NCBI GenBank assembly: GCA_026985565.1
Contig: JALSQG010000095.1
Span: forward strand, 6,634-38,633
DNA from: Deltaproteobacteria bacterium
GTDB lineage: Bacteria; Desulfobacterota; Dissulfuribacteria; Dissulfuribacterales; QOAL01
Direction of reading: 5' to 3'
DNA length: 32,000 nt
Positions 1 to 19,850 of this stretch are shown piece by piece. A program made the position numbers and the translations under genes. Position 1 is the stretch's first letter; each line of letters opens with the position of its first letter. Below the pieces are notes generated by a model, which had not been told where the DNA came from, searched no databases, and saw only the letters and a program-made list of their open reading frames with translations.

Positions 1-549
1 GAGCTCGGAACGGGTAACCTCGAACATCTCATCAGGGGCAAGATCGGTATTGTACACATTTGCCGAACCCACGGTCTTGCCACCTTTTATCCCGGATAGA
101 TCCGGACTGCTTGCCCAGTTCTTCCAGCCAGTGGATGCCGGTGGAAAGATATGGGCATTAAGATTCTCCATGTAATCGTGATCGAGGCGATGAAGAAAAC
201 GGCCATAGTCTGCCTCATAGATGAGGATTCTCTTGAAGGATACAAGCCCTCCATACTCCTGATCGTCCACGTCCCTGTAAAGGGCATCTGCATTAAAATC
301 GAGGCCGTTTTTTGAAAGCTCGAGATTTCCCCCAAGATATGTGGTCCACTTGTATCCAACTGACGAGTTGTATTCAGCACCGCCCTTTGCGCCACTTTCG
401 TCTCCGTGGAGCTTGTCAAGGGCAGTAGTTGCCCCCACCTTGATCTGGCCTGAATACCACTTGCCTTCCTCTTCACCAAAGACGGCGGACGCCCCGGCAG
501 TTGCCAGTGCAAAAATCGCCGTCATAAAAAGTATTGCTGCTTTTTTCAT
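1..549 (-). CDS. Outer-membrane beta-barrel protein, MtrB/PioB-like (5' part only; runs off the left edge)
   Basis: Not in the ORF track because there is no in-window stop. Reading triplets by hand from ATG (complement of 547-549) to position 1 gives 183 sense codons and no stop. GGAGGT lies 7 nt upstream of the ATG. The N-terminus MKKAAILFMTAIFALATAGASA looks like a Sec signal. It is followed by alternating-hydrophobic, Gly/Tyr/Asp-rich segments (YSGQIKVGATTAL, GGNLELSKNGLDFNADALYRDVDDQEY) typical of barrel strands. The gene starts 17 nt after the decaheme gene stop. The family call rests on context and composition. Confidence 0.6.
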   Translation of the reverse strand, partial: MKKAAILFMTAIFALATAGASAVFGEEEGKWYSGQIKVGATTALDKLHGDESGAKGGAEYNSSVGYKWTTYLGGNLELSKNGLDFNADALYRDVDDQEYGGLVSFKRILIYEADYGRFLHRLDHDYMENLNAHIFPPASTGWKNWASSPDLSGIKGGKTVGSANVYNTDLAPDEMFEVTRSEL

Positions 550-566
550 CGGCTTTACCTCCTTGG

Positions 567-1568
567 CTACCGGGTTAGTCCGTGTCCGCTTGTCACGGTC
601 TGGGAAGTGTAATCAGAGCCGTGAACATACTGGTGACACTGGGTACATTTGGTCATAAAAGACTTTTGGAAACCGTAGTTGGTTCCAAGAAGTTTCCTGC
701 CATTGTCATAGGGGCTGCCTCCGCCTGGTATTCCGTGTTTTTCAAGGCTTGAAGCCCTTGCAGCATGGAAATGTGCCTCATGACACTGGAGACACAGGAA
801 TGGCTCCTGCTGCTTGAGCAGGTTGTTGGCTACAGTGCCGTGAGGATCATGACAGATGAGACAGTCTTCAACCACCGGATCGTGCTCGAATACGAATGGC
901 CCCTGGTAACGGGTATGACATTTAAGGCAAAGATCGTTTACACGCTCATCTGTCTTTAGCATCCCAGGCTCAAGGCTGCCGCTTCCATGTGGATTGTGAC
1001 AGTCTGTGCACCCCATCTTCCCTTCTCTTACCGGGTGATGGGATTGGAGATACATCTGAGAAGTTATGTCACCATGACAAGATGCGCAAAGTGCCATTTC
1101 ATCAGCCTTTGTCAGAAGGTTCTTATTCTTGTTATGATGCACCTTGTGACACTCGGTGCAGGAAACATCCCTTTCTGCATGCACAGATCCGGGCCAGTTC
1201 ATATTTTCATCCACCTGATGACAGGTGGTACACACGCCTGCCACCTCTTCAGGGGAAAGTCCATGATCAAATTTCAGGATTTTCTCAGTATCCCCCTCCC
1301 CTTTGACATGAAGAGAACCAGGTCCATGGCAAGACTCACAACCTGTCTTATATCCGCCAGAGACCTCAAAATCGGCTATCTTCATGTGCACGTTGTATTT
1401 GTCACTGGAAAGATCCTCATGACATTCAAGGCAAGTTTTACTCCCTACATAGGTTGCACCAGGTGCCACTTCTGGAGCCTTTATGACATTTGCCCTCTTT
1501 TGAAGCACCTGGGCACAGCCGATAACAAAAAGCATACCGACTGTCAGACCAATAAATTTCCTAATCAT
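567..1568 (-). CDS. Decaheme c-type cytochrome, MtrA/DmsE family
   Basis: 333 aa with ten CXXCH motifs: CLECH, CESCH, CTTCH, CTECH, CASCH, CTDCH, CLKCH, CLICH, CLQCH, CTQCH. Size and heme count equal Shewanella MtrA/DmsE. The C-terminal CTQCHQYVHGSD resembles the family end. GGAGGG lies 5 nt upstream of the ATG. The N-terminal signal ends in a lipobox-like VIGC. Confidence 0.9.
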   Translation of the reverse strand: MIRKFIGLTVGMLFVIGCAQVLQKRANVIKAPEVAPGATYVGSKTCLECHEDLSSDKYNVHMKIADFEVSGGYKTGCESCHGPGSLHVKGEGDTEKILKFDHGLSPEEVAGVCTTCHQVDENMNWPGSVHAERDVSCTECHKVHHNKNKNLLTKADEMALCASCHGDITSQMYLQSHHPVREGKMGCTDCHNPHGSGSLEPGMLKTDERVNDLCLKCHTRYQGPFVFEHDPVVEDCLICHDPHGTVANNLLKQQEPFLCLQCHEAHFHAARASSLEKHGIPGGGSPYDNGRKLLGTNYGFQKSFMTKCTQCHQYVHGSDYTSQTVTSGHGLTR

Positions 1569-1670
1569 AGGTACCCTCCATAATCCTTGTTCTGGTTGGA
1601 AAATCCTCTTTTCCCAATGATCAGTCTACCTACGCCTGAAATCTGCTATCACCCCCTTTCATCCTGTAAT

Positions 1671-1710
1671 AAAAAAACCGCCAAGGCTTCATAGCAAAAA
1701 CCGTTGGCGG
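1671..1710 (-). terminator. Intrinsic terminator or attenuator hairpin between mobB and the cytochrome gene
   Basis: The minus strand reads CCGCCAACGG-TTTTTGCTATGAAG-CCTTGGCGG followed by TTTTTTT (plus-strand A-run 1671-1677). The stem is 9 bp with one bulge. Confidence 0.5.
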
Positions 1711-1884
1711 CTAATAAAAAAATGATGTTTGGCCTTTCAGTCTAAGACGGTGATACGACCCGACGGGCCGATACTCTATCAAGATTCAGTTAAATAAAAC
1801 AAAACCTCTTTGGGAATAACAGTGATACAATGCCCCCTCCCATGCACCCTGTTATTTGTTTTTTCTTCTTGTGATTATTTTTTT

Positions 1885-1912
1885 AAATTACATAAATTAC
1901 AAACCATGTCAA
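1885..1912 (-). promoter_or_regulatory. Candidate sigma70-type promoter for the cytochrome/porin operon leader
   Basis: Minus strand: TTGACA (1912-1907), 16 nt spacer, TAATTT (1890-1885). The background is AT-rich, so a chance match is possible. Confidence 0.3.
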
Positions 1913-1957
1913 GAGAAACAATTGCTGGTAAACTTATGGTAGATGCAAAAAACAATC

Positions 1958-2620
1958 TCAATTCTTTTTCATTTTTATGAAGATCTGGATGTCCTCGGCC
2001 CCTTCTGTAAATCTCAAGGAGCTTACATATCCGCAAATGGTACCTTTCATGGAATCTCGAACAAACCTTTTAAGGGGTATTTTTCTGCCGTTAACAACAA
2101 GGGCAATTTCATCCTTTTTTTTCTTTTGGCGTAACTGAAACGTCTCTTCAATGAAATCACAAAGCACAGGGACTTCTTCATGGGAAAAATGTCGTACACC
2201 TTGAACATCAAAGTCTGATACCACTGCCATCACCCCGTTTGTGCTCTCTTTAATCAGTTGTGTAGAGATATCTGAACGGGCTACCTCGATCTTTTTGATA
2301 TCCTTGGCATGCTTAAACCCTTCACAAATGACAAGATCAAGATCAGGGAAAAGGGATAAGGCCAAAACCTCAAGGCCTCTATCATCATGGGGCCTTATGG
2401 CAGTTACGGTAGAAGGGGTTACCACTGCCAAATGCTCTATGCCTTCTCTCTGATAAAGATCGGTGTCAGATCCTTCTTTTTCAAAAGGCTGAAGGTCATG
2501 CTTGGTGGACTTTATAATGCCAATCTTGTAGCCCCTTTTTCTAAGCTCATTGGCAACCTTTCTGATTAATGTTGTCTTGCCGCTATTGTGGTATCCTACA
2601 AATGCCAGTACGTGGCCCAT
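1958..2620 (-). CDS. mobB: Molybdopterin-guanine dinucleotide biosynthesis adapter protein MobB, with a C-terminal extension
   Basis: P-loop FVGYHNSGKTTL at the N-terminus and a MobB-like core. I prefer the ATG at 2620 (GGGAGA 6 nt upstream) over the track start at 2641. About 50 extra C-terminal residues have unknown function. Confidence 0.85.
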   Translation of the reverse strand: MGHVLAFVGYHNSGKTTLIRKVANELRKRGYKIGIIKSTKHDLQPFEKEGSDTDLYQREGIEHLAVVTPSTVTAIRPHDDRGLEVLALSLFPDLDLVICEGFKHAKDIKKIEVARSDISTQLIKESTNGVMAVVSDFDVQGVRHFSHEEVPVLCDFIEETFQLRQKKKKDEIALVVNGRKIPLKRFVRDSMKGTICGYVSSLRFTEGAEDIQIFIKMKKN

Positions 2621-2721
2621 TTTTATCTCCCTTGCAACCAATGCTTTTGCTTTGTAAGGCAGCTATGGTACTTTCAAAAGCTTGGCAGTGCAATAATACG
2701 AGGCAGATTGAGTCATAAGAG

Positions 2722-3489
2722 ATGATCCCTATCACCCTTGAATTTGAAACCACAGTAATTACCAAAGAAGGCTCAGAGCCAAAACAGGAAACTGTTGCCA
2801 TTGAAACACCCTTTAGGGTCGCCCTTAATGATAAACCAATTGGTACGTCCATGGTGCTGCCAAAAGGGCTTGAGGAGTTTGGTGTGGGTTTTTTGTTTGG
2901 CCAAGGCTACATAGAAGAGCCAGGCCAGGTCAAAGAGGTTTACGTATGTCCTGAAGGAAGGATAAGCGTCTATGCTGATGTTGAAGACGTTCAGCCCAAA
3001 GAGGTTATCATCACATCTGGTTGCGGCGGAACAGGCAGGATATCCAAGAAGATGCTTGAAGGTGCCTTTGGCCCCCTTTCCGAGTGTACTATCTCCATGG
3101 AGGAAATAGGGCAATTCGTGCTTAAGGTGCTTCATCTGTCAGACCTGGGACTGAAGACCCATTGCATACACGGATGCGGCTTTTGGGCCAAAGGGCAACT
3201 GGTTGCATTCTACGAAGACGTTGGCCGGCATAATGCAGTGGACAAGATCATCGGGGCCATTCTTCTTGGCAAGATACCGTCAAAGGGGGCCATATATACC
3301 ACAGGAAGGCTTACATCAGACATGGTGCTAAAATGCGCAAGGATAGGTATCCCCATTGTAATGTCACGAACGGCCCCCTCCTCCCTGGGCCTTGCAATAG
3401 CAAGACGGGCAGGAGTTACCCTTGCTGCCTATGTACGTCCCCACCGTATAAACTGTTTCCATGCACCACAAAGAATAATTCAAAAATGA
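2722..3489 (+). CDS. fdhD: Formate dehydrogenase accessory sulfurtransferase FdhD
   Basis: Motifs: ETPFRVALND, GFLFGQGYI, SGCGGTG, EDVGRHNAVDKIIG, SRTAPSSLGLAIARRAGVTLAAYVR. This is the classic FdhD/NarQ pattern. Confidence 0.9.
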   Translation: MIPITLEFETTVITKEGSEPKQETVAIETPFRVALNDKPIGTSMVLPKGLEEFGVGFLFGQGYIEEPGQVKEVYVCPEGRISVYADVEDVQPKEVIITSGCGGTGRISKKMLEGAFGPLSECTISMEEIGQFVLKVLHLSDLGLKTHCIHGCGFWAKGQLVAFYEDVGRHNAVDKIIGAILLGKIPSKGAIYTTGRLTSDMVLKCARIGIPIVMSRTAPSSLGLAIARRAGVTLAAYVRPHRINCFHAPQRIIQK

Positions 3490-3599
3490 CATGACAAACT
3501 GTATATGCTCCAAGGTCATACCTTTCACTTCAAATTTTAATACTTAACTTTTCAATAATTACAGTAATCACACCACGAAAGAAACTGAGGCTGCCAATC

Positions 3600-4568
3600 A
3601 TGTCAAATGAAGTGCAGGAACTTGTAAAAAGACTCAGGCCAAACCTATCAATAGGGCAATATGGCCGCATATACAGGGATACCACTGAATTTATGAAGAT
3701 ATCCTATGGAGATGTCATTGCCCTTGAGGACCAGCACTATCTGGTACTGCGGGATGAAGCCGAAAGGAGCTTTGGCATAGAAGATCCCAAGTATTGGGTA
3801 AAAAGATGCATCCATCTGGAAAGTGGTGAAAGAAAGATATTAAAGCTTGTCTTTTATGAAAAATTTACCCTTAAACTCGGAGACCTGGATATCCCCTGCT
3901 ACAGAAGCCCTCGAAAGGAGGGCAGGATCCTGGATTTGGTGAGAGGTGACAGTCGTTTTATGCAGGGTGTATCAAAAAAGGATGAAAAGGGCAATCTGGT
4001 TCGAATAATCGATGTAGTAAGTGGAAAGAGGCTTGATCACCATGTCTTTGAAATGGAAATGCCCCACAGGGAATATTTTTTTAAGGAATTTCCAGGCATC
4101 CTTGAAAAGTTCATAGATTCCTGTCGGGCCATTGAATTCTTGCATGAAAACAGGGAGATTCATGGAGACATAAGAAGAGATCATCTGTGGCGCGAGTACA
4201 AAAGCGGTAACTATGTGTGGATAGACTTTGATTATGCGTATGAATTTGAGGAAAATCCCTTTGGACTCGATATCTTTGGACTTGGAAGCCTTCTTATCTA
4301 CCTTGCAGGCAAACAGATCTACACCATGGCCAACCTGTCGCAAATCCTTGGAGACAAAGACCTTGAGTTTGAGAAACAGGATTTTTCACTTCTTTATAAG
4401 AATCGTATTGTCAATCTAAGGAAGCTGTTCCCATACATCCCGGAACAGATGAACGTCATCTTTATGCATTTTTCCCAGGGAGCAGAGGTCTTTTACGAAA
4501 CGGTTTCAGAATTTTTGGCTGACCTGGAACCTTGTCTTGAAATTATAAAAAATAAGGAGGCGTCATGA
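3600..4568 (+). CDS. Atypical protein-kinase-like fold protein (uncharacterised)
   Basis: Catalytic-loop-like IHGDIRRDHL, with His where kinases normally carry the metal-binding Asn. DFG-like WIDFDYA. Subdomain-IX-like GLDIFGLGSLLIYLAG. A candidate beta3 Lys sits in RKILKLVF. There is no clear Gly-rich loop. The stop overlaps the next start (ATGA). Confidence 0.7.
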   Translation: MSNEVQELVKRLRPNLSIGQYGRIYRDTTEFMKISYGDVIALEDQHYLVLRDEAERSFGIEDPKYWVKRCIHLESGERKILKLVFYEKFTLKLGDLDIPCYRSPRKEGRILDLVRGDSRFMQGVSKKDEKGNLVRIIDVVSGKRLDHHVFEMEMPHREYFFKEFPGILEKFIDSCRAIEFLHENREIHGDIRRDHLWREYKSGNYVWIDFDYAYEFEENPFGLDIFGLGSLLIYLAGKQIYTMANLSQILGDKDLEFEKQDFSLLYKNRIVNLRKLFPYIPEQMNVIFMHFSQGAEVFYETVSEFLADLEPCLEIIKNKEAS

Positions 4569-17244: not shown

Positions 17245-17436
17245 CTACCACCAACTGACTGTCTGATCCGCCTCAAAAATCATCTGCACAAGCACATCGT
17301 AATTGGGATCTCCAACATAGAGTTTAAATTCCATTGCATCACGATCACGACTTAATATCTCAACGAGCTTTTTGGTGTCATCGTTGGGTTCAGACCTGTA
17401 AACGTGTAATATCTTCATCTTTTTTTCGTCGCTCAT
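17245..17436 (-). CDS. Small conserved hypothetical protein (fifth gene of the YedE-TusA-DsrE cluster)
   Basis: 63 aa with no Cys, ending in WW. It starts 16 nt after the upstream stop, with GGGGGAGGGA upstream of the ATG. Confidence 0.6.
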   Translation of the reverse strand: MSDEKKMKILHVYRSEPNDDTKKLVEILSRDRDAMEFKLYVGDPNYDVLVQMIFEADQTVSWW

Positions 17437-17452
17437 CTTTTCCCTCCCCCTT

Positions 17453-17794
17453 TTAATCTTCTGAACATGCTGGTGGCGGTGTCTTGCTCTGTTTAGGGAG
17501 ACCGTAGGGTATGATCAGGTCTGCCTCTCTCAGCCTTTCGCCAAGCTCTTCTAAGCTGATCTTGGTAAGCTCCACCCCTTCGACGTCCTCACCATCCATT
17601 GTGAAGACATCACCCTCCATGTCTCTGATCCAGTCGATATTCTCTTTGACGTAATCAGAAAAACGGGGATACTCACTATACATAAAAACAGGATAGGCAT
17701 AATGGTTTTCCACTGCCAAGCCGAGGGCAGAACGCACGGCATCGCCCGAATACATCCTGTTTTGCATCAAGAAATAACATTTTTTTGATTCCAT
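17453..17794 (-). CDS. Conserved hypothetical protein, possibly a DsrE/F/H-like fold, with a Pro-rich C-terminal Cys tail
   Basis: 113 aa. It starts 18 nt after the DsrE-like stop. The C-terminus is ...PKQSKTPPPACSED. GGAGGAGG lies upstream of the ATG. Confidence 0.65.
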   Translation of the reverse strand: MESKKCYFLMQNRMYSGDAVRSALGLAVENHYAYPVFMYSEYPRFSDYVKENIDWIRDMEGDVFTMDGEDVEGVELTKISLEELGERLREADLIIPYGLPKQSKTPPPACSED

Positions 17795-17812
17795 GATATT
17801 ATGCCTCCTCCA

Positions 17813-18145
17813 TTAAAGAACCAGATATTTTCCGCACTCGTCAATAATTGCACCATGATAGGCCTGGGTCCTCATCTGACGAGGAGTCAACCCCTTTGGC
17901 ACATCCTTTTCCACATCATATCCTTCACATGTGTAGCTATCTGCACATATGGCCAAATCTTCCACTTCACACATATTGGCCAGCTTTACAAAATCAGGAT
18001 GCTTTGTCAGATGCACCGACTTAAAGGTGAAAAATACCATCACCTTCTTGCCGGCACGTGTTGCAGCAGCTGCCACACCTATCACATGTCTCATGTGCTG
18101 GGGAGACGTCACAAATATTCCAAGTTTGTTAGGATCGGTTGCCAT
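17813..18145 (-). CDS. DsrE/DsrF-like sulfur relay family protein
   Basis: 110 aa. LGIFVTSPQH...AAAATRAGKKVMVFF is Rossmann-like. The Cys-containing segment LAICADSYTCEGY resembles the DsrE active-site region. Confidence 0.75.
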   Translation of the reverse strand: MATDPNKLGIFVTSPQHMRHVIGVAAAATRAGKKVMVFFTFKSVHLTKHPDFVKLANMCEVEDLAICADSYTCEGYDVEKDVPKGLTPRQMRTQAYHGAIIDECGKYLVL

Positions 18146-18188
18146 CGGTATAAAACCTCCCTTTCTTCAGATTGGAAGAAACTTTTTG

Positions 18189-18446
18189 TTACTTTTTCTT
18201 AACGTAAAAACGAATGAATCCGTCGTCCTCTCTCTCGCCAAGGTACTCATGGCCAGCCCTTGCACACCAGCCTGGGATGTCATTTCTGGAGCCGGGATCG
18301 GTACCAAGAACCTCGAGGATCTCGCCAGAATTGATCTTCTCTATTTCCTTCTTTGTCCTAAGAAGTGGCATTGGACAACTGAGTCCCTTTGCATCCAGTG
18401 TACGTGCTACCTCTAAGCCTTCTGGGGCAATTTTGATGTCGCTCAT
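18189..18446 (-). CDS. tusA: TusA-like sulfurtransferase
   Basis: 85 aa. LDAKGLSCPMPLLRTKKEI carries the CPxP active-site motif, followed by ILEVLGTDPGSRNDIP. Confidence 0.9.
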   Translation of the reverse strand: MSDIKIAPEGLEVARTLDAKGLSCPMPLLRTKKEIEKINSGEILEVLGTDPGSRNDIPGWCARAGHEYLGEREDDGFIRFYVKKK

Positions 18447-18500
18447 GTTTCCTCCTTTTGCTATTTGTATGATTTTTTTATTTCAGTAGTTTTACATAAA

Positions 18501-19850
18501 CTACATTTCTACTATCAGCTTGTTGGAATCTTCATTCCAATCAACGATTATGTACCAAAGGGCCATGGCAATGGCCACCACGGCTAATGTACCGCCGTAT
18601 CCCAAGGCATCTGGAAGGTAAAGGTGCATCCCAAGCTTGCTTCCCTCATGTGTTGGCCCTACACCTTCCATATGTATTGCCCTAAACCATTTGGTCATTA
18701 TGGCATTTGAGATGCCAAAGAATGGAACCACCAGCCAAAGCTTCATCTGGCCTTCACCAACTCGCCAAAGGGTACCGGAGCCACATCCTCCTGCAAACAT
18801 GGCCCCAAGACCAAAAAGGAATCCACCCAAGATGGAACCCCATCCGAAGGTACCACGTACATAATTGACAGGATCAAGGGTGCGCCTTGCAGCTATGACC
18901 GCCTGGTCTGCAGCGTCCACCACGTCCTCAAGGGTGTCAGCCAGCTCTTCATCCTTTACTTCATCTGGATCTATCTCATCCACCACCTCGCTAAGTGTGG
19001 ACTGAACTGCCACTGCAGAACCCCTTTGAGGAACAGCATACTTTAAAACTGCAGCACCAATGGCAACAACCAGTATGCTAAGGGCAACAGATTTTGCAAG
19101 GGTACAGTCCCCAGTCATGTGGGGTTCCCTGAATGCTTGAACCATGCACCAGCGACCCCTTTGCATGGTATAGCCAAGCCCAGCCGAAATGAGGAGGATG
19201 CCACTTAAAGATGAGACATACTCGTCACTTTGGCCAGAGTAATGACAGGCGCCCCAAATGACTGCCGCCAGGGCTCCCAATCCAATCAGGATCTTGAGCC
19301 CATAGGGGAAATCAAAATTTTTACCGCCAGAAGTTCCCCATGTGATGTGCTCCATTTCCCAGTAAATATATTTGAGGCCAAGGACCACACCTATGACAAG
19401 CCCAAGCCACATGGTAAAACCGTTTGCAGCAAGATTACCAATGGCGTTGTACATGCCGCCAACATTACAACCTCCGGCAAAGGCAGAGCCTACTCCCATG
19501 AGGATGCCTGCGATAATCGCCTTTATAAACTCCCAAGGAGGAGGAAACTTGAATGAAAAATCGTTGCCGAGACATGCAGATATAAATGCCCCTGCCAAAA
19601 AACCTATTCCAATAACAGAACCGGAACTGATTACGACACTTGTGGGTTTGGCATCAAAGATTCCAACACCATAAAGAATCCACTCACCCCAGTTCCTGAT
19701 GGCACCAACAGCTCCCCACGGCCTCCACCAAGCCATTATTAGGATACTCAAAAGGGCCACTATCAAGCCAGCTGCAGTGGCGTTCCACTCGGTCTGGCAC
19801 AGAATCTTGAAAAAATTCTTCACCTTTTCCTTAAACAAACCATCGCTCAT
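18501..19850 (-). CDS. YeeE/YedE family sulfur-compound transporter-like membrane protein
   Basis: 449 aa polytopic protein with two half-domains, each carrying a GGC motif (AFAGGCNVGG; MFAGGCGSGTLWR), plus RWCMVQAF. A hydrophilic acidic insert of about 60 aa sits in the second half. Confidence 0.9.
   Translation of the reverse strand: MSDGLFKEKVKNFFKILCQTEWNATAAGLIVALLSILIMAWWRPWGAVGAIRNWGEWILYGVGIFDAKPTSVVISSGSVIGIGFLAGAFISACLGNDFSFKFPPPWEFIKAIIAGILMGVGSAFAGGCNVGGMYNAIGNLAANGFTMWLGLVIGVVLGLKYIYWEMEHITWGTSGGKNFDFPYGLKILIGLGALAAVIWGACHYSGQSDEYVSSLSGILLISAGLGYTMQRGRWCMVQAFREPHMTGDCTLAKSVALSILVVAIGAAVLKYAVPQRGSAVAVQSTLSEVVDEIDPDEVKDEELADTLEDVVDAADQAVIAARRTLDPVNYVRGTFGWGSILGGFLFGLGAMFAGGCGSGTLWRVGEGQMKLWLVVPFFGISNAIMTKWFRAIHMEGVGPTHEGSKLGMHLYLPDALGYGGTLAVVAIAMALWYIIVDWNEDSNKLIVEM

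Follow-up and report, generated by a model that had tools for sequence, protein, structure and literature searches.

A GSU2203/GSU2204-type (omcK-omcL) gene pair in a Desulfobacterota contig, and a probable two-component electron conduit with haem and selenocysteine motifs in its porin

We analysed a stretch of 32,000 nucleotides from a Deltaproteobacteria bacterium (GenBank assembly GCA_026985565.1, contig JALSQG010000095.1, positions 6,634 to 38,633 of the forward strand), which is called the window in this text. At its left end, positions 1-1568 on the minus strand carry a gene for a decahaem c-type cytochrome, followed by the first part of a gene for an outer-membrane barrel protein. By their profile matches these genes are omcK and omcL. 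The two-gene operon probably encodes a two-component outer-membrane electron conduit, in which OmcK would sit inside the barrel of OmcL, and a haem together with a selenocysteine (Sec) at the outer mouth of the barrel would form the site where electrons leave or enter. The features of the pair are as follows.

Positions 567 to 1568, minus strand: omcK, a GSU2203-family decahaem c-type cytochrome, homologue of MtrA and DmsE (NF041028, TIGR03508, 6r2q_A).
Positions 1 to 549, minus strand: 5' part of omcL, codons 1-183 of 786 (NF041027 fragment match and full gene on the public contig L001).
Positions 1515 to 1526, minus strand: lipobox VIGC (…LFVIGC), decahaem residues 15-18, which predicts lipid anchoring.
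Positions 558 to 564, minus strand: Shine-Dalgarno sequence AAGGAGG in the 17-nucleotide spacer between the genes, read from the sequence.
Positions 175 to 192, minus strand: HRLDHD motif, barrel residues 120-125, outer end of strand 5 (alignments; strand positions from models of relatives).

The open reading frame (ORF) of omcK is translated into 333 amino acids with ten CXXCH haem-binding motifs, and begins with the lipobox-type signal MIRKFIGLTVGMLFVIGC. The spacer runs from the stop codon of the decahaem gene to the ATG of the barrel gene at 549. The second ORF starts with a typical signal peptide (MKKAAILFMTAIFALATAGASA) and leaves the window at the left edge after 183 codons. These encode the signal peptide and then roughly five beta strands, and they stop early in surface loop 3. 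Past the edge come the CXXCH of the barrel (residues 220-224), the UGA/Sec codon at residue 633 and the five strands that complete the barrel; the most unusual features of omcL, the in-frame UGA and the CXXCH, thus lie off the window. An earlier reading made from the sequence alone had described a 333-residue ten-haem cytochrome, a signal-peptide ORF starting 17 nucleotides later and running off the window, mobB upstream and a divergent fdhD, and all of these were confirmed.

We compared both proteins with profile models. The decahaem cytochrome matched NF041028 (GSU2203 family) over residues 10-333 with 441 bits (cutoff, 325), and it also passed the model of the broader DmsE family, TIGR03508 (254.8 bits; cutoff, 192.2). 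Aligned with chain A of 6r2q, which we take to be MtrA, it gave an E-value of 4.2e-47 over residues 41-322, and all ten haem sites were paired. The entry 6r2q is the structure of the Mtr complex (PMC7198977). The 183-residue fragment of the barrel matched NF041027 with 72.3 bits (cutoff, 350; E = 3.6e-20; model positions 3-149 of 580), besides a weak match to OMP_b-brl.

The remainder of the barrel gene was read from two public contigs, L001 and L002, which carry the exact decahaem sequence. Both run colinear with the window along 11,568 bp, in which L001 differs at 62 positions and L002 at 47 (99.5-99.6% identity), and the full omcL occupies 11020-13383 of L001. Its first 632 residues scored 465.5 bits with NF041027 (cutoff, 350) across model positions 3-580 of 580, and the model ends at the residue before the UGA. 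The title of this model is "GSU2204 family CXXCH-containing (seleno)protein". The full barrel also matched Pfam MtrB_PioB (PF11854) with 56.1 bits, against a gathering threshold of 23, and the sole match of the family profile among PDB sequences was 6r2q_B (E = 1.3e-4, 13% identity). The single CXXCH of the barrel reads CLACH on L001. Its C, C and H were invariant in 72 of 72 aligned sequences, and one CXXCH occurred in essentially every intact barrel copy of a 58-locus cluster, being missing only from broken or partial copies.

GSU2203 of G. sulfurreducens is OmcK, and GSU2203/GSU2204 are induced by hematite and magnetite (PMC4070692). For OmcKL, a function as porin:cytochrome conduit has been proposed, and its expression is high in HotSeep-1 in methane-oxidising consortia (PMC10553843). 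Such expression data are indirect evidence for a role of the family in extracellular electron transfer. By sequence homology, the pair is a predicted porin-cytochrome conduit of the MtrAB superfamily and belongs to the GSU2203/GSU2204 (OmcK/OmcL) family, which agrees with the MtrAB/DmsEF-type conduit named in the sequence-only reading. The locus adds one member to a known family, and the haem motif and the Sec of the barrel are already recorded in curated databases and reviews. The locus itself is routine: it is one more OmcKL pair, in a lineage that has a sulfur-disproportionation-type cluster.

The stop codon called for omcL on L001 is a TGA that follows the conserved ...YCIAxYDG. Beyond it the frame stays open for 153 further codons up to a TAA, and the read-through C-terminus (...LMGYLSYSF) is a classic outer-membrane beta-signal. 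The same position was inspected in 59 related loci. A TGA directly after the conserved ...C-x-A-x-Y-D/H-G is present at 42 of them, and 137-156 in-frame codons ending in Phe come after it. Another 12 loci, which are more distant (Aminicenantes, Acidobacteriota and others), have Cys at the UGA column within an uninterrupted ORF of about 720 residues. Among database homologues, 35 of 36 end at the same Gly, about 80% along the read-through protein. A search of 1.84 billion cluster representatives returned 241 family members at an E-value of 1e-30 or better; among the best 150 of these 241, 106 look like full proteins but terminate at the Gly preceding the Sec codon, and 143 have at least one CXXCH.

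Public gene callers annotate the TGA as a true stop, which would make the product a 632-residue truncated barrel with a separate 138-residue protein behind it, or else a pseudogene. A search for the selenocysteine insertion sequence (SECIS) gave no Rfam match above noise around the UGA, which accords with a stop, although bacterial SECIS elements are poorly covered in Rfam and this result was not counted against Sec. A scan for tRNA-Sec found no tRNA at all in the window, and the Sec machinery was not located within it. However, the recurrence of UGA at one column in 42 loci, with Cys there in 12, is at odds with a stop, and the stretch from the UGA to the next ATG shows the substitution pattern of coding sequence: over its 15 codons we counted 281, 181 and 851 differences at positions 1, 2 and 3, and the 15 codons before the UGA likewise vary mainly at the third position.

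A hairpin with AGU in its loop lies 17-19 nucleotides downstream of the UGA. Its pairing was 84% in 26 diverse sequences and fell to 55% or less once the partners were slid, and one pair was seen as AU, CG, GC and UA. The covarying hairpin is confined to the UGA forms, since the Cys forms have no consistent hairpin (mean of −5.7 kcal/mol, versus −10.0 kcal/mol in UGA forms). Moreover, five strands and the beta-signal come after the Sec, and without them the barrel could not be closed. The split at the UGA is the very one on which an NCBIfam model is based, and lists of prokaryotic selenoproteins already include the family (PMC9312934, PMC13188914). A true stop is thus hardly credible, and the conservation of the site supports translation of the in-frame UGA as Sec, which would complete OmcL.

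A C-X6-U selenenylsulfide pair was considered as a universal feature of the family and was rejected, because the upstream Cys is missing in the Cys forms and in many Sec forms. As most public gene calls end the barrel at the Sec codon, public entries for the family are systematically truncated, at about 570-690 residues, and miss its last five strands; hence surveys of genes for extracellular electron transfer use incomplete porins. The family merits closer attention. The literature on the conduit and the literature on the selenoproteins of this family did not refer to each other among the papers that we found.

The fold was modelled for two full-length relatives from the 72-sequence alignment, namely P0091 (a Gly variant within the Sec clade, 31% identical) and P0045 (a Cys form, 23% identical). 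P0091 is encoded at L037 7327-9543 (+), where GGA replaces the Sec codon; the barrel of 738 residues is uninterrupted there, and the downstream hairpin is partly decayed. The mean predicted local distance difference test score (pLDDT) and the predicted template modelling score (pTM) were 78.4 and 0.75 for P0091, and 84.9 and 0.76 for P0045. Each model is a barrel of 26 strands in which the even-to-odd connections are short turns and the odd-to-even ones long loops. In a Foldseek search with the P0091 model, 6r2q_B (MtrB) ranked first (E = 7e-23, template modelling (TM) scores of 0.66/0.75), and the runners-up were 22-strand TonB-dependent receptors with TM scores of about 0.4. The second protein had been called barrel-like from the sequence, with a large barrel of roughly 26-28 strands expected. 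The 183 residues in the window cannot settle this by themselves; the near-identical contigs and the models of the relatives bear it out, the count of 26 strands coming from proteins that are 31% and 23% identical.

The two models agree in placing the CXXCH on loop 4, which joins strands 7 and 8, and the Sec/Cys position on loop 11, which joins strands 21 and 22. The residues invariant across the clades are HRLDHD, R-x-G-x-x-Q...C-x-x-C-H, a single Asn, a Ser, an Arg, an Asn and G-U/C, and all of them are at the long-loop ends of strands in the two models. MtrB has tight turns on the periplasmic side and a surface loop from strand 1 to strand 2, and its surface loops lie over the distal end of MtrA (PMC7198977). 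If the long loops of OmcL are surface loops too, by homology with MtrB, then the haem motif and the Sec would both be placed at the outer mouth of the barrel. The HRLDHD motif, which is invariant or nearly so in the Sec clade and in the Cys clade alike, may provide a distal ligand or a pocket for the barrel haem.

We propose that OmcK enters OmcL from the periplasm, in the way that MtrA occupies MtrB, and that in the lineage of the window it is tethered by an N-terminal lipid. OmcK within OmcL would form a haem wire of roughly 80 angstroms across the membrane. The barrel would itself supply the exit or entry site at the outer mouth: surface loop 4 would bear a c-type haem and surface loop 11 a selenocysteine, and the two would replace a surface cytochrome of the MtrC kind. 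Electrons might be exchanged with an Fe(III)/Mn(IV) mineral, with a second cell or with some sulfur species. OmcK is placed inside OmcL because it is homologous to MtrA, because the OmcK of Cys-type loci has a plain MtrA-like signal peptide with no lipobox, and because the conserved outer-rim site of the barrel would extend the haem chain, not duplicate it. It would then be the surface cytochrome, and not the periplasmic one, that is the missing component. The layout gives a concrete hypothesis of how a two-component conduit could work without a surface cytochrome.

Several points weigh against this arrangement. The window holds 23% of the barrel gene, and the CXXCH, the Sec and the fold are taken from the 99.5%-identical contigs and from relatives that are 23-32% identical. 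The loops were placed by strand order alone, with loops 4 and 11 on roughly opposite sides of the barrel. Sec insertion and the attachment of haem to a beta-barrel are deduced from motifs and conservation, and the lack of a located Sec machinery, mentioned above, belongs here too. One locus of 59, that of P0091, has Gly at the Sec position, which shows that at least one lineage can dispense with Sec or has lost it recently. In addition, OmcK has been published as the extracellular partner, with the periplasmic cytochrome deemed missing (PMC10553843).

The pair was compared with known systems. It resembles OmcK/OmcL of G. sulfurreducens, and of the sulfate reducers that partner with anaerobic methanotrophic archaea (ANME), in passing both family models, in the decahaem-then-barrel order, in the single barrel CXXCH, in the Sec at the family position, and in having no adjacent gene for a periplasmic or surface cytochrome. 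Only the host and the neighbourhood differ, since here the pair belongs to a hydrothermal-type lineage of Desulfobacterota known from metagenome-assembled genomes, with a YedE/TusA/DsrE cluster. Accounts of the OmcKL conduit, PMC10553843 among them, are silent on the Sec and on the location of the haem motif; they put OmcK outside the cell, whereas here it is aligned with MtrA.

With the MtrAB core of MtrCAB (Shewanella, 6R2Q), the pair shares a decahaem that aligns over ten haems and the A-then-B gene order, and, judging from the models of relatives, 26 strands, MtrB being the best structural match. However, no MtrC-like surface decahaem lipoprotein is encoded in the cluster here, the barrel has its own CXXCH and Sec on predicted surface loops, the decahaem has a lipobox, and the sequence similarity of the barrels is marginal. 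PioAB and MtoAB, the conduits of Fe(II) oxidisers, are also two-gene systems of a decahaem and a porin without a surface cytochrome. To our knowledge, their porins have neither a haem motif nor Sec. That one polypeptide can combine a c-type haem motif with an outer-membrane barrel has a precedent in the fused cytochrome-porin Cyc2 (PMC8406198), but, compared by description only, Cyc2 has an N-terminal haem domain and a much smaller barrel and needs no decahaem.

The last system compared is DmsEFAB, the extracellular dimethyl sulfoxide reductase of Shewanella, in which a DmsE-family decahaem also precedes an MtrB-like barrel. The sequence-only reading had suggested that the operon might continue leftward into a molybdopterin oxidoreductase, which the conduit would wire at the outer surface and whose cofactor would be matured by mobB and fdhD. 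Three features to the right of omcK bear on it.

Positions 1958 to 2641, minus strand: mobB, neighbour outside the conduit (likely ATG at 2620, giving 220 amino acids, as called on public contigs).
Positions 2722 to 3489, plus strand: fdhD, formate dehydrogenase accessory sulfurtransferase, neighbour outside the conduit, divergent from mobB.
Positions 1669 to 1712, minus strand: intrinsic-terminator-like hairpin with a U7 run in the gap between mobB and omcK (−20.9 kcal/mol, z = −5.0).

Two observations favour this molybdoenzyme link: the decahaem passes the DmsE-family model too, and mobB and fdhD are adjacent to the pair in the window and in its three closest public relatives. mobB (TIGR00176, 92.4 bits; cutoff, 76.2) is on the same strand, 389 nucleotides upstream of omcK, and fdhD matched TIGR00129 (150.7 bits; cutoff, 140.9). 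However, the hairpin separates mobB from omcK, and none of 200 shuffled sequences folded equally well. Co-transcription of mobB and omcK was rejected on account of this hairpin and the 389-nucleotide AT-rich gap. On the other side, a GC-rich, terminator-like hairpin with a T-run stands directly 3' of the true stop (TAA) of omcL. Beyond it, in the about 9.4 kb of leftward extension, we found a 345-residue lipoprotein without a family, iorA, iorB, a DUF5052 gene and scpB, in place of the oxidoreductase that had been suggested. Neither a molybdopterin oxidoreductase nor a 4Fe-4S subunit was found in these 9.4 kb or in the 32-kb window, and there are no dmsA or dmsB equivalents.

The survey covered about 60 related loci. 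The barrel was present in 58, with the decahaem directly upstream in 57, and there was no conserved third partner (surface cytochrome, oxidoreductase or rhodanese) across them; the remaining neighbours are housekeeping genes common to sub-clades only. The adjacency to mobB/fdhD is limited to four loci, namely the lineage of the window and its three closest relatives. In relatives at 68% identity or less, the pair persists without mobB or fdhD within 8 kb, and serA, an aminotransferase and other housekeeping genes are found there instead. Therefore, omcK-omcL is an insulated two-gene unit bracketed by terminator-like hairpins, and mobB and fdhD are unrelated neighbours. The DmsEFAB-like explanation is largely refuted already and must be regarded as very improbable; the tempting molybdoenzyme link is removed, and the alternative named in the sequence-only reading, an electron conduit for metals or minerals, is more plausible.

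Two further scans covered window positions 1-3700: the hits to sigma-70 and terminator consensus sequences were not above those in shuffled sequence, and the Rfam search for RNA families gave nothing above noise. The MobB domain spans only residues 11-166 of the 220/227-residue protein, the C-terminal 60 or so residues having no family match.

No other multihaem ORF exists in the window. The only other nearby multihaem gene encodes an ExtM-like cytochrome with 11 haems, on the opposite strand and about 6 kb away. It occupies L001 18821-20605 (-), about 6 kb past the left window edge, and its 11 CXXCH motifs are in a frame that is split by one in-frame TGA (...VVILVPG-U-QDFISF...), so that it is annotated as proteins of 443 and 126 residues. 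Close to omcKL there is in this way a further candidate for a selenocysteine-containing cytochrome, which lends indirect support to the presence of the Sec machinery.

The decahaem has a lipobox at nearly all Sec-type loci; the Cys-type loci lack it and have a plain signal peptide. At Cys-type loci of the Aminicenantes/Acidobacteriota type (L045-L065; e.g., L045 5449-7716), genes for an ArsR-family regulator and a tetrahaem c554-like cytochrome lie directly upstream, and L045 has 11- and 21-haem cytochromes downstream as well.

The same OmcK-in-OmcL conduit could carry electrons inward, from Fe(II), a mineral or a partner cell, in the manner of PioAB and MtoAB. The two-gene architecture without an adjacent surface cytochrome is that of PioAB and MtoAB. 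OmcKL is also highly expressed in the partner bacteria of ANME, which are thought to receive electrons (PMC10553843). The induction of GSU2203/GSU2204 in G. sulfurreducens on iron oxides (PMC4070692) points the other way. So does "mtrAB" of Desulfuromonas acetexigens (MtrB, TRO83920.1), which is expressed on electrodes/anodes and iron oxides (PMC12133095), although it is only possibly of the same lineage. Haem wires are reversible, so sequence cannot decide the direction; on the whole, inward flow is possible but less likely than not.

The outer-rim haem and the Sec could also be a catalytic site for an external chalcogen (S0, polysulfide, thiosulfate or selenite) and not a mere exit. This explanation draws on the normally catalytic role of Sec, on the clustering of all invariant residues at the surface rim, and on the occurrence of the family in the sulfur disproportionators Dissulfuribacter, Thermosulfurimonas and Dissulfuribacterales, as well as on the YedE/TusA/DsrE cluster in the same window and the ArsR-family regulator at Cys-type loci. 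However, about 14 strands separate loops 4 and 11, members of the family are also common among metal reducers and Aminicenantes, and Sec is replaced by Gly in one lineage. We regard such a site as unlikely. Sec-type OmcL is found in Dissulfuribacter, Dissulfuribacterales, Thermosulfurimonas and many others. This distribution is compatible with a metal-oxide role or an external-sulfur role, and it is a correlation only.

By extension, the MtrB-like barrel may itself be a redox enzyme, with the loop haem and the Sec as a catalytic site fed by the in-barrel decahaem, and with the Sec perhaps as an axial haem ligand. The His/Cys haems of SoxAX and TsdA offer an analogy for Sec as an axial ligand. 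We consider this speculative idea rather doubtful. If it were true, sulfur-disproportionating or syntrophic Desulfobacterota could reduce or oxidise insoluble or external species of S or Se at the cell surface.

The cluster in question lies 16 kb away, at window positions 17245-19850 (-). It consists of a YedE-like gene (PF04143), a TusA-like gene (85 residues, CPMP motif), a DsrE-like gene (110 residues) and ORFs of 113 and 63 residues, and this five-gene run looks YTD-type; the YedE-like gene alone was checked with a profile. The sequence-only reading had remarked on a sulfur-disproportionation marker cluster in this stretch, and the run is in keeping with that remark.

Beside fdhD, positions 3600-4568 (+) of the window encode a 322-residue protein without a match in Pfam or NCBIfam. 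Its HGDIRRDH...DFDYA resembles a protein-kinase-like catalytic core, and the gene is kept beside fdhD in the closest relative.

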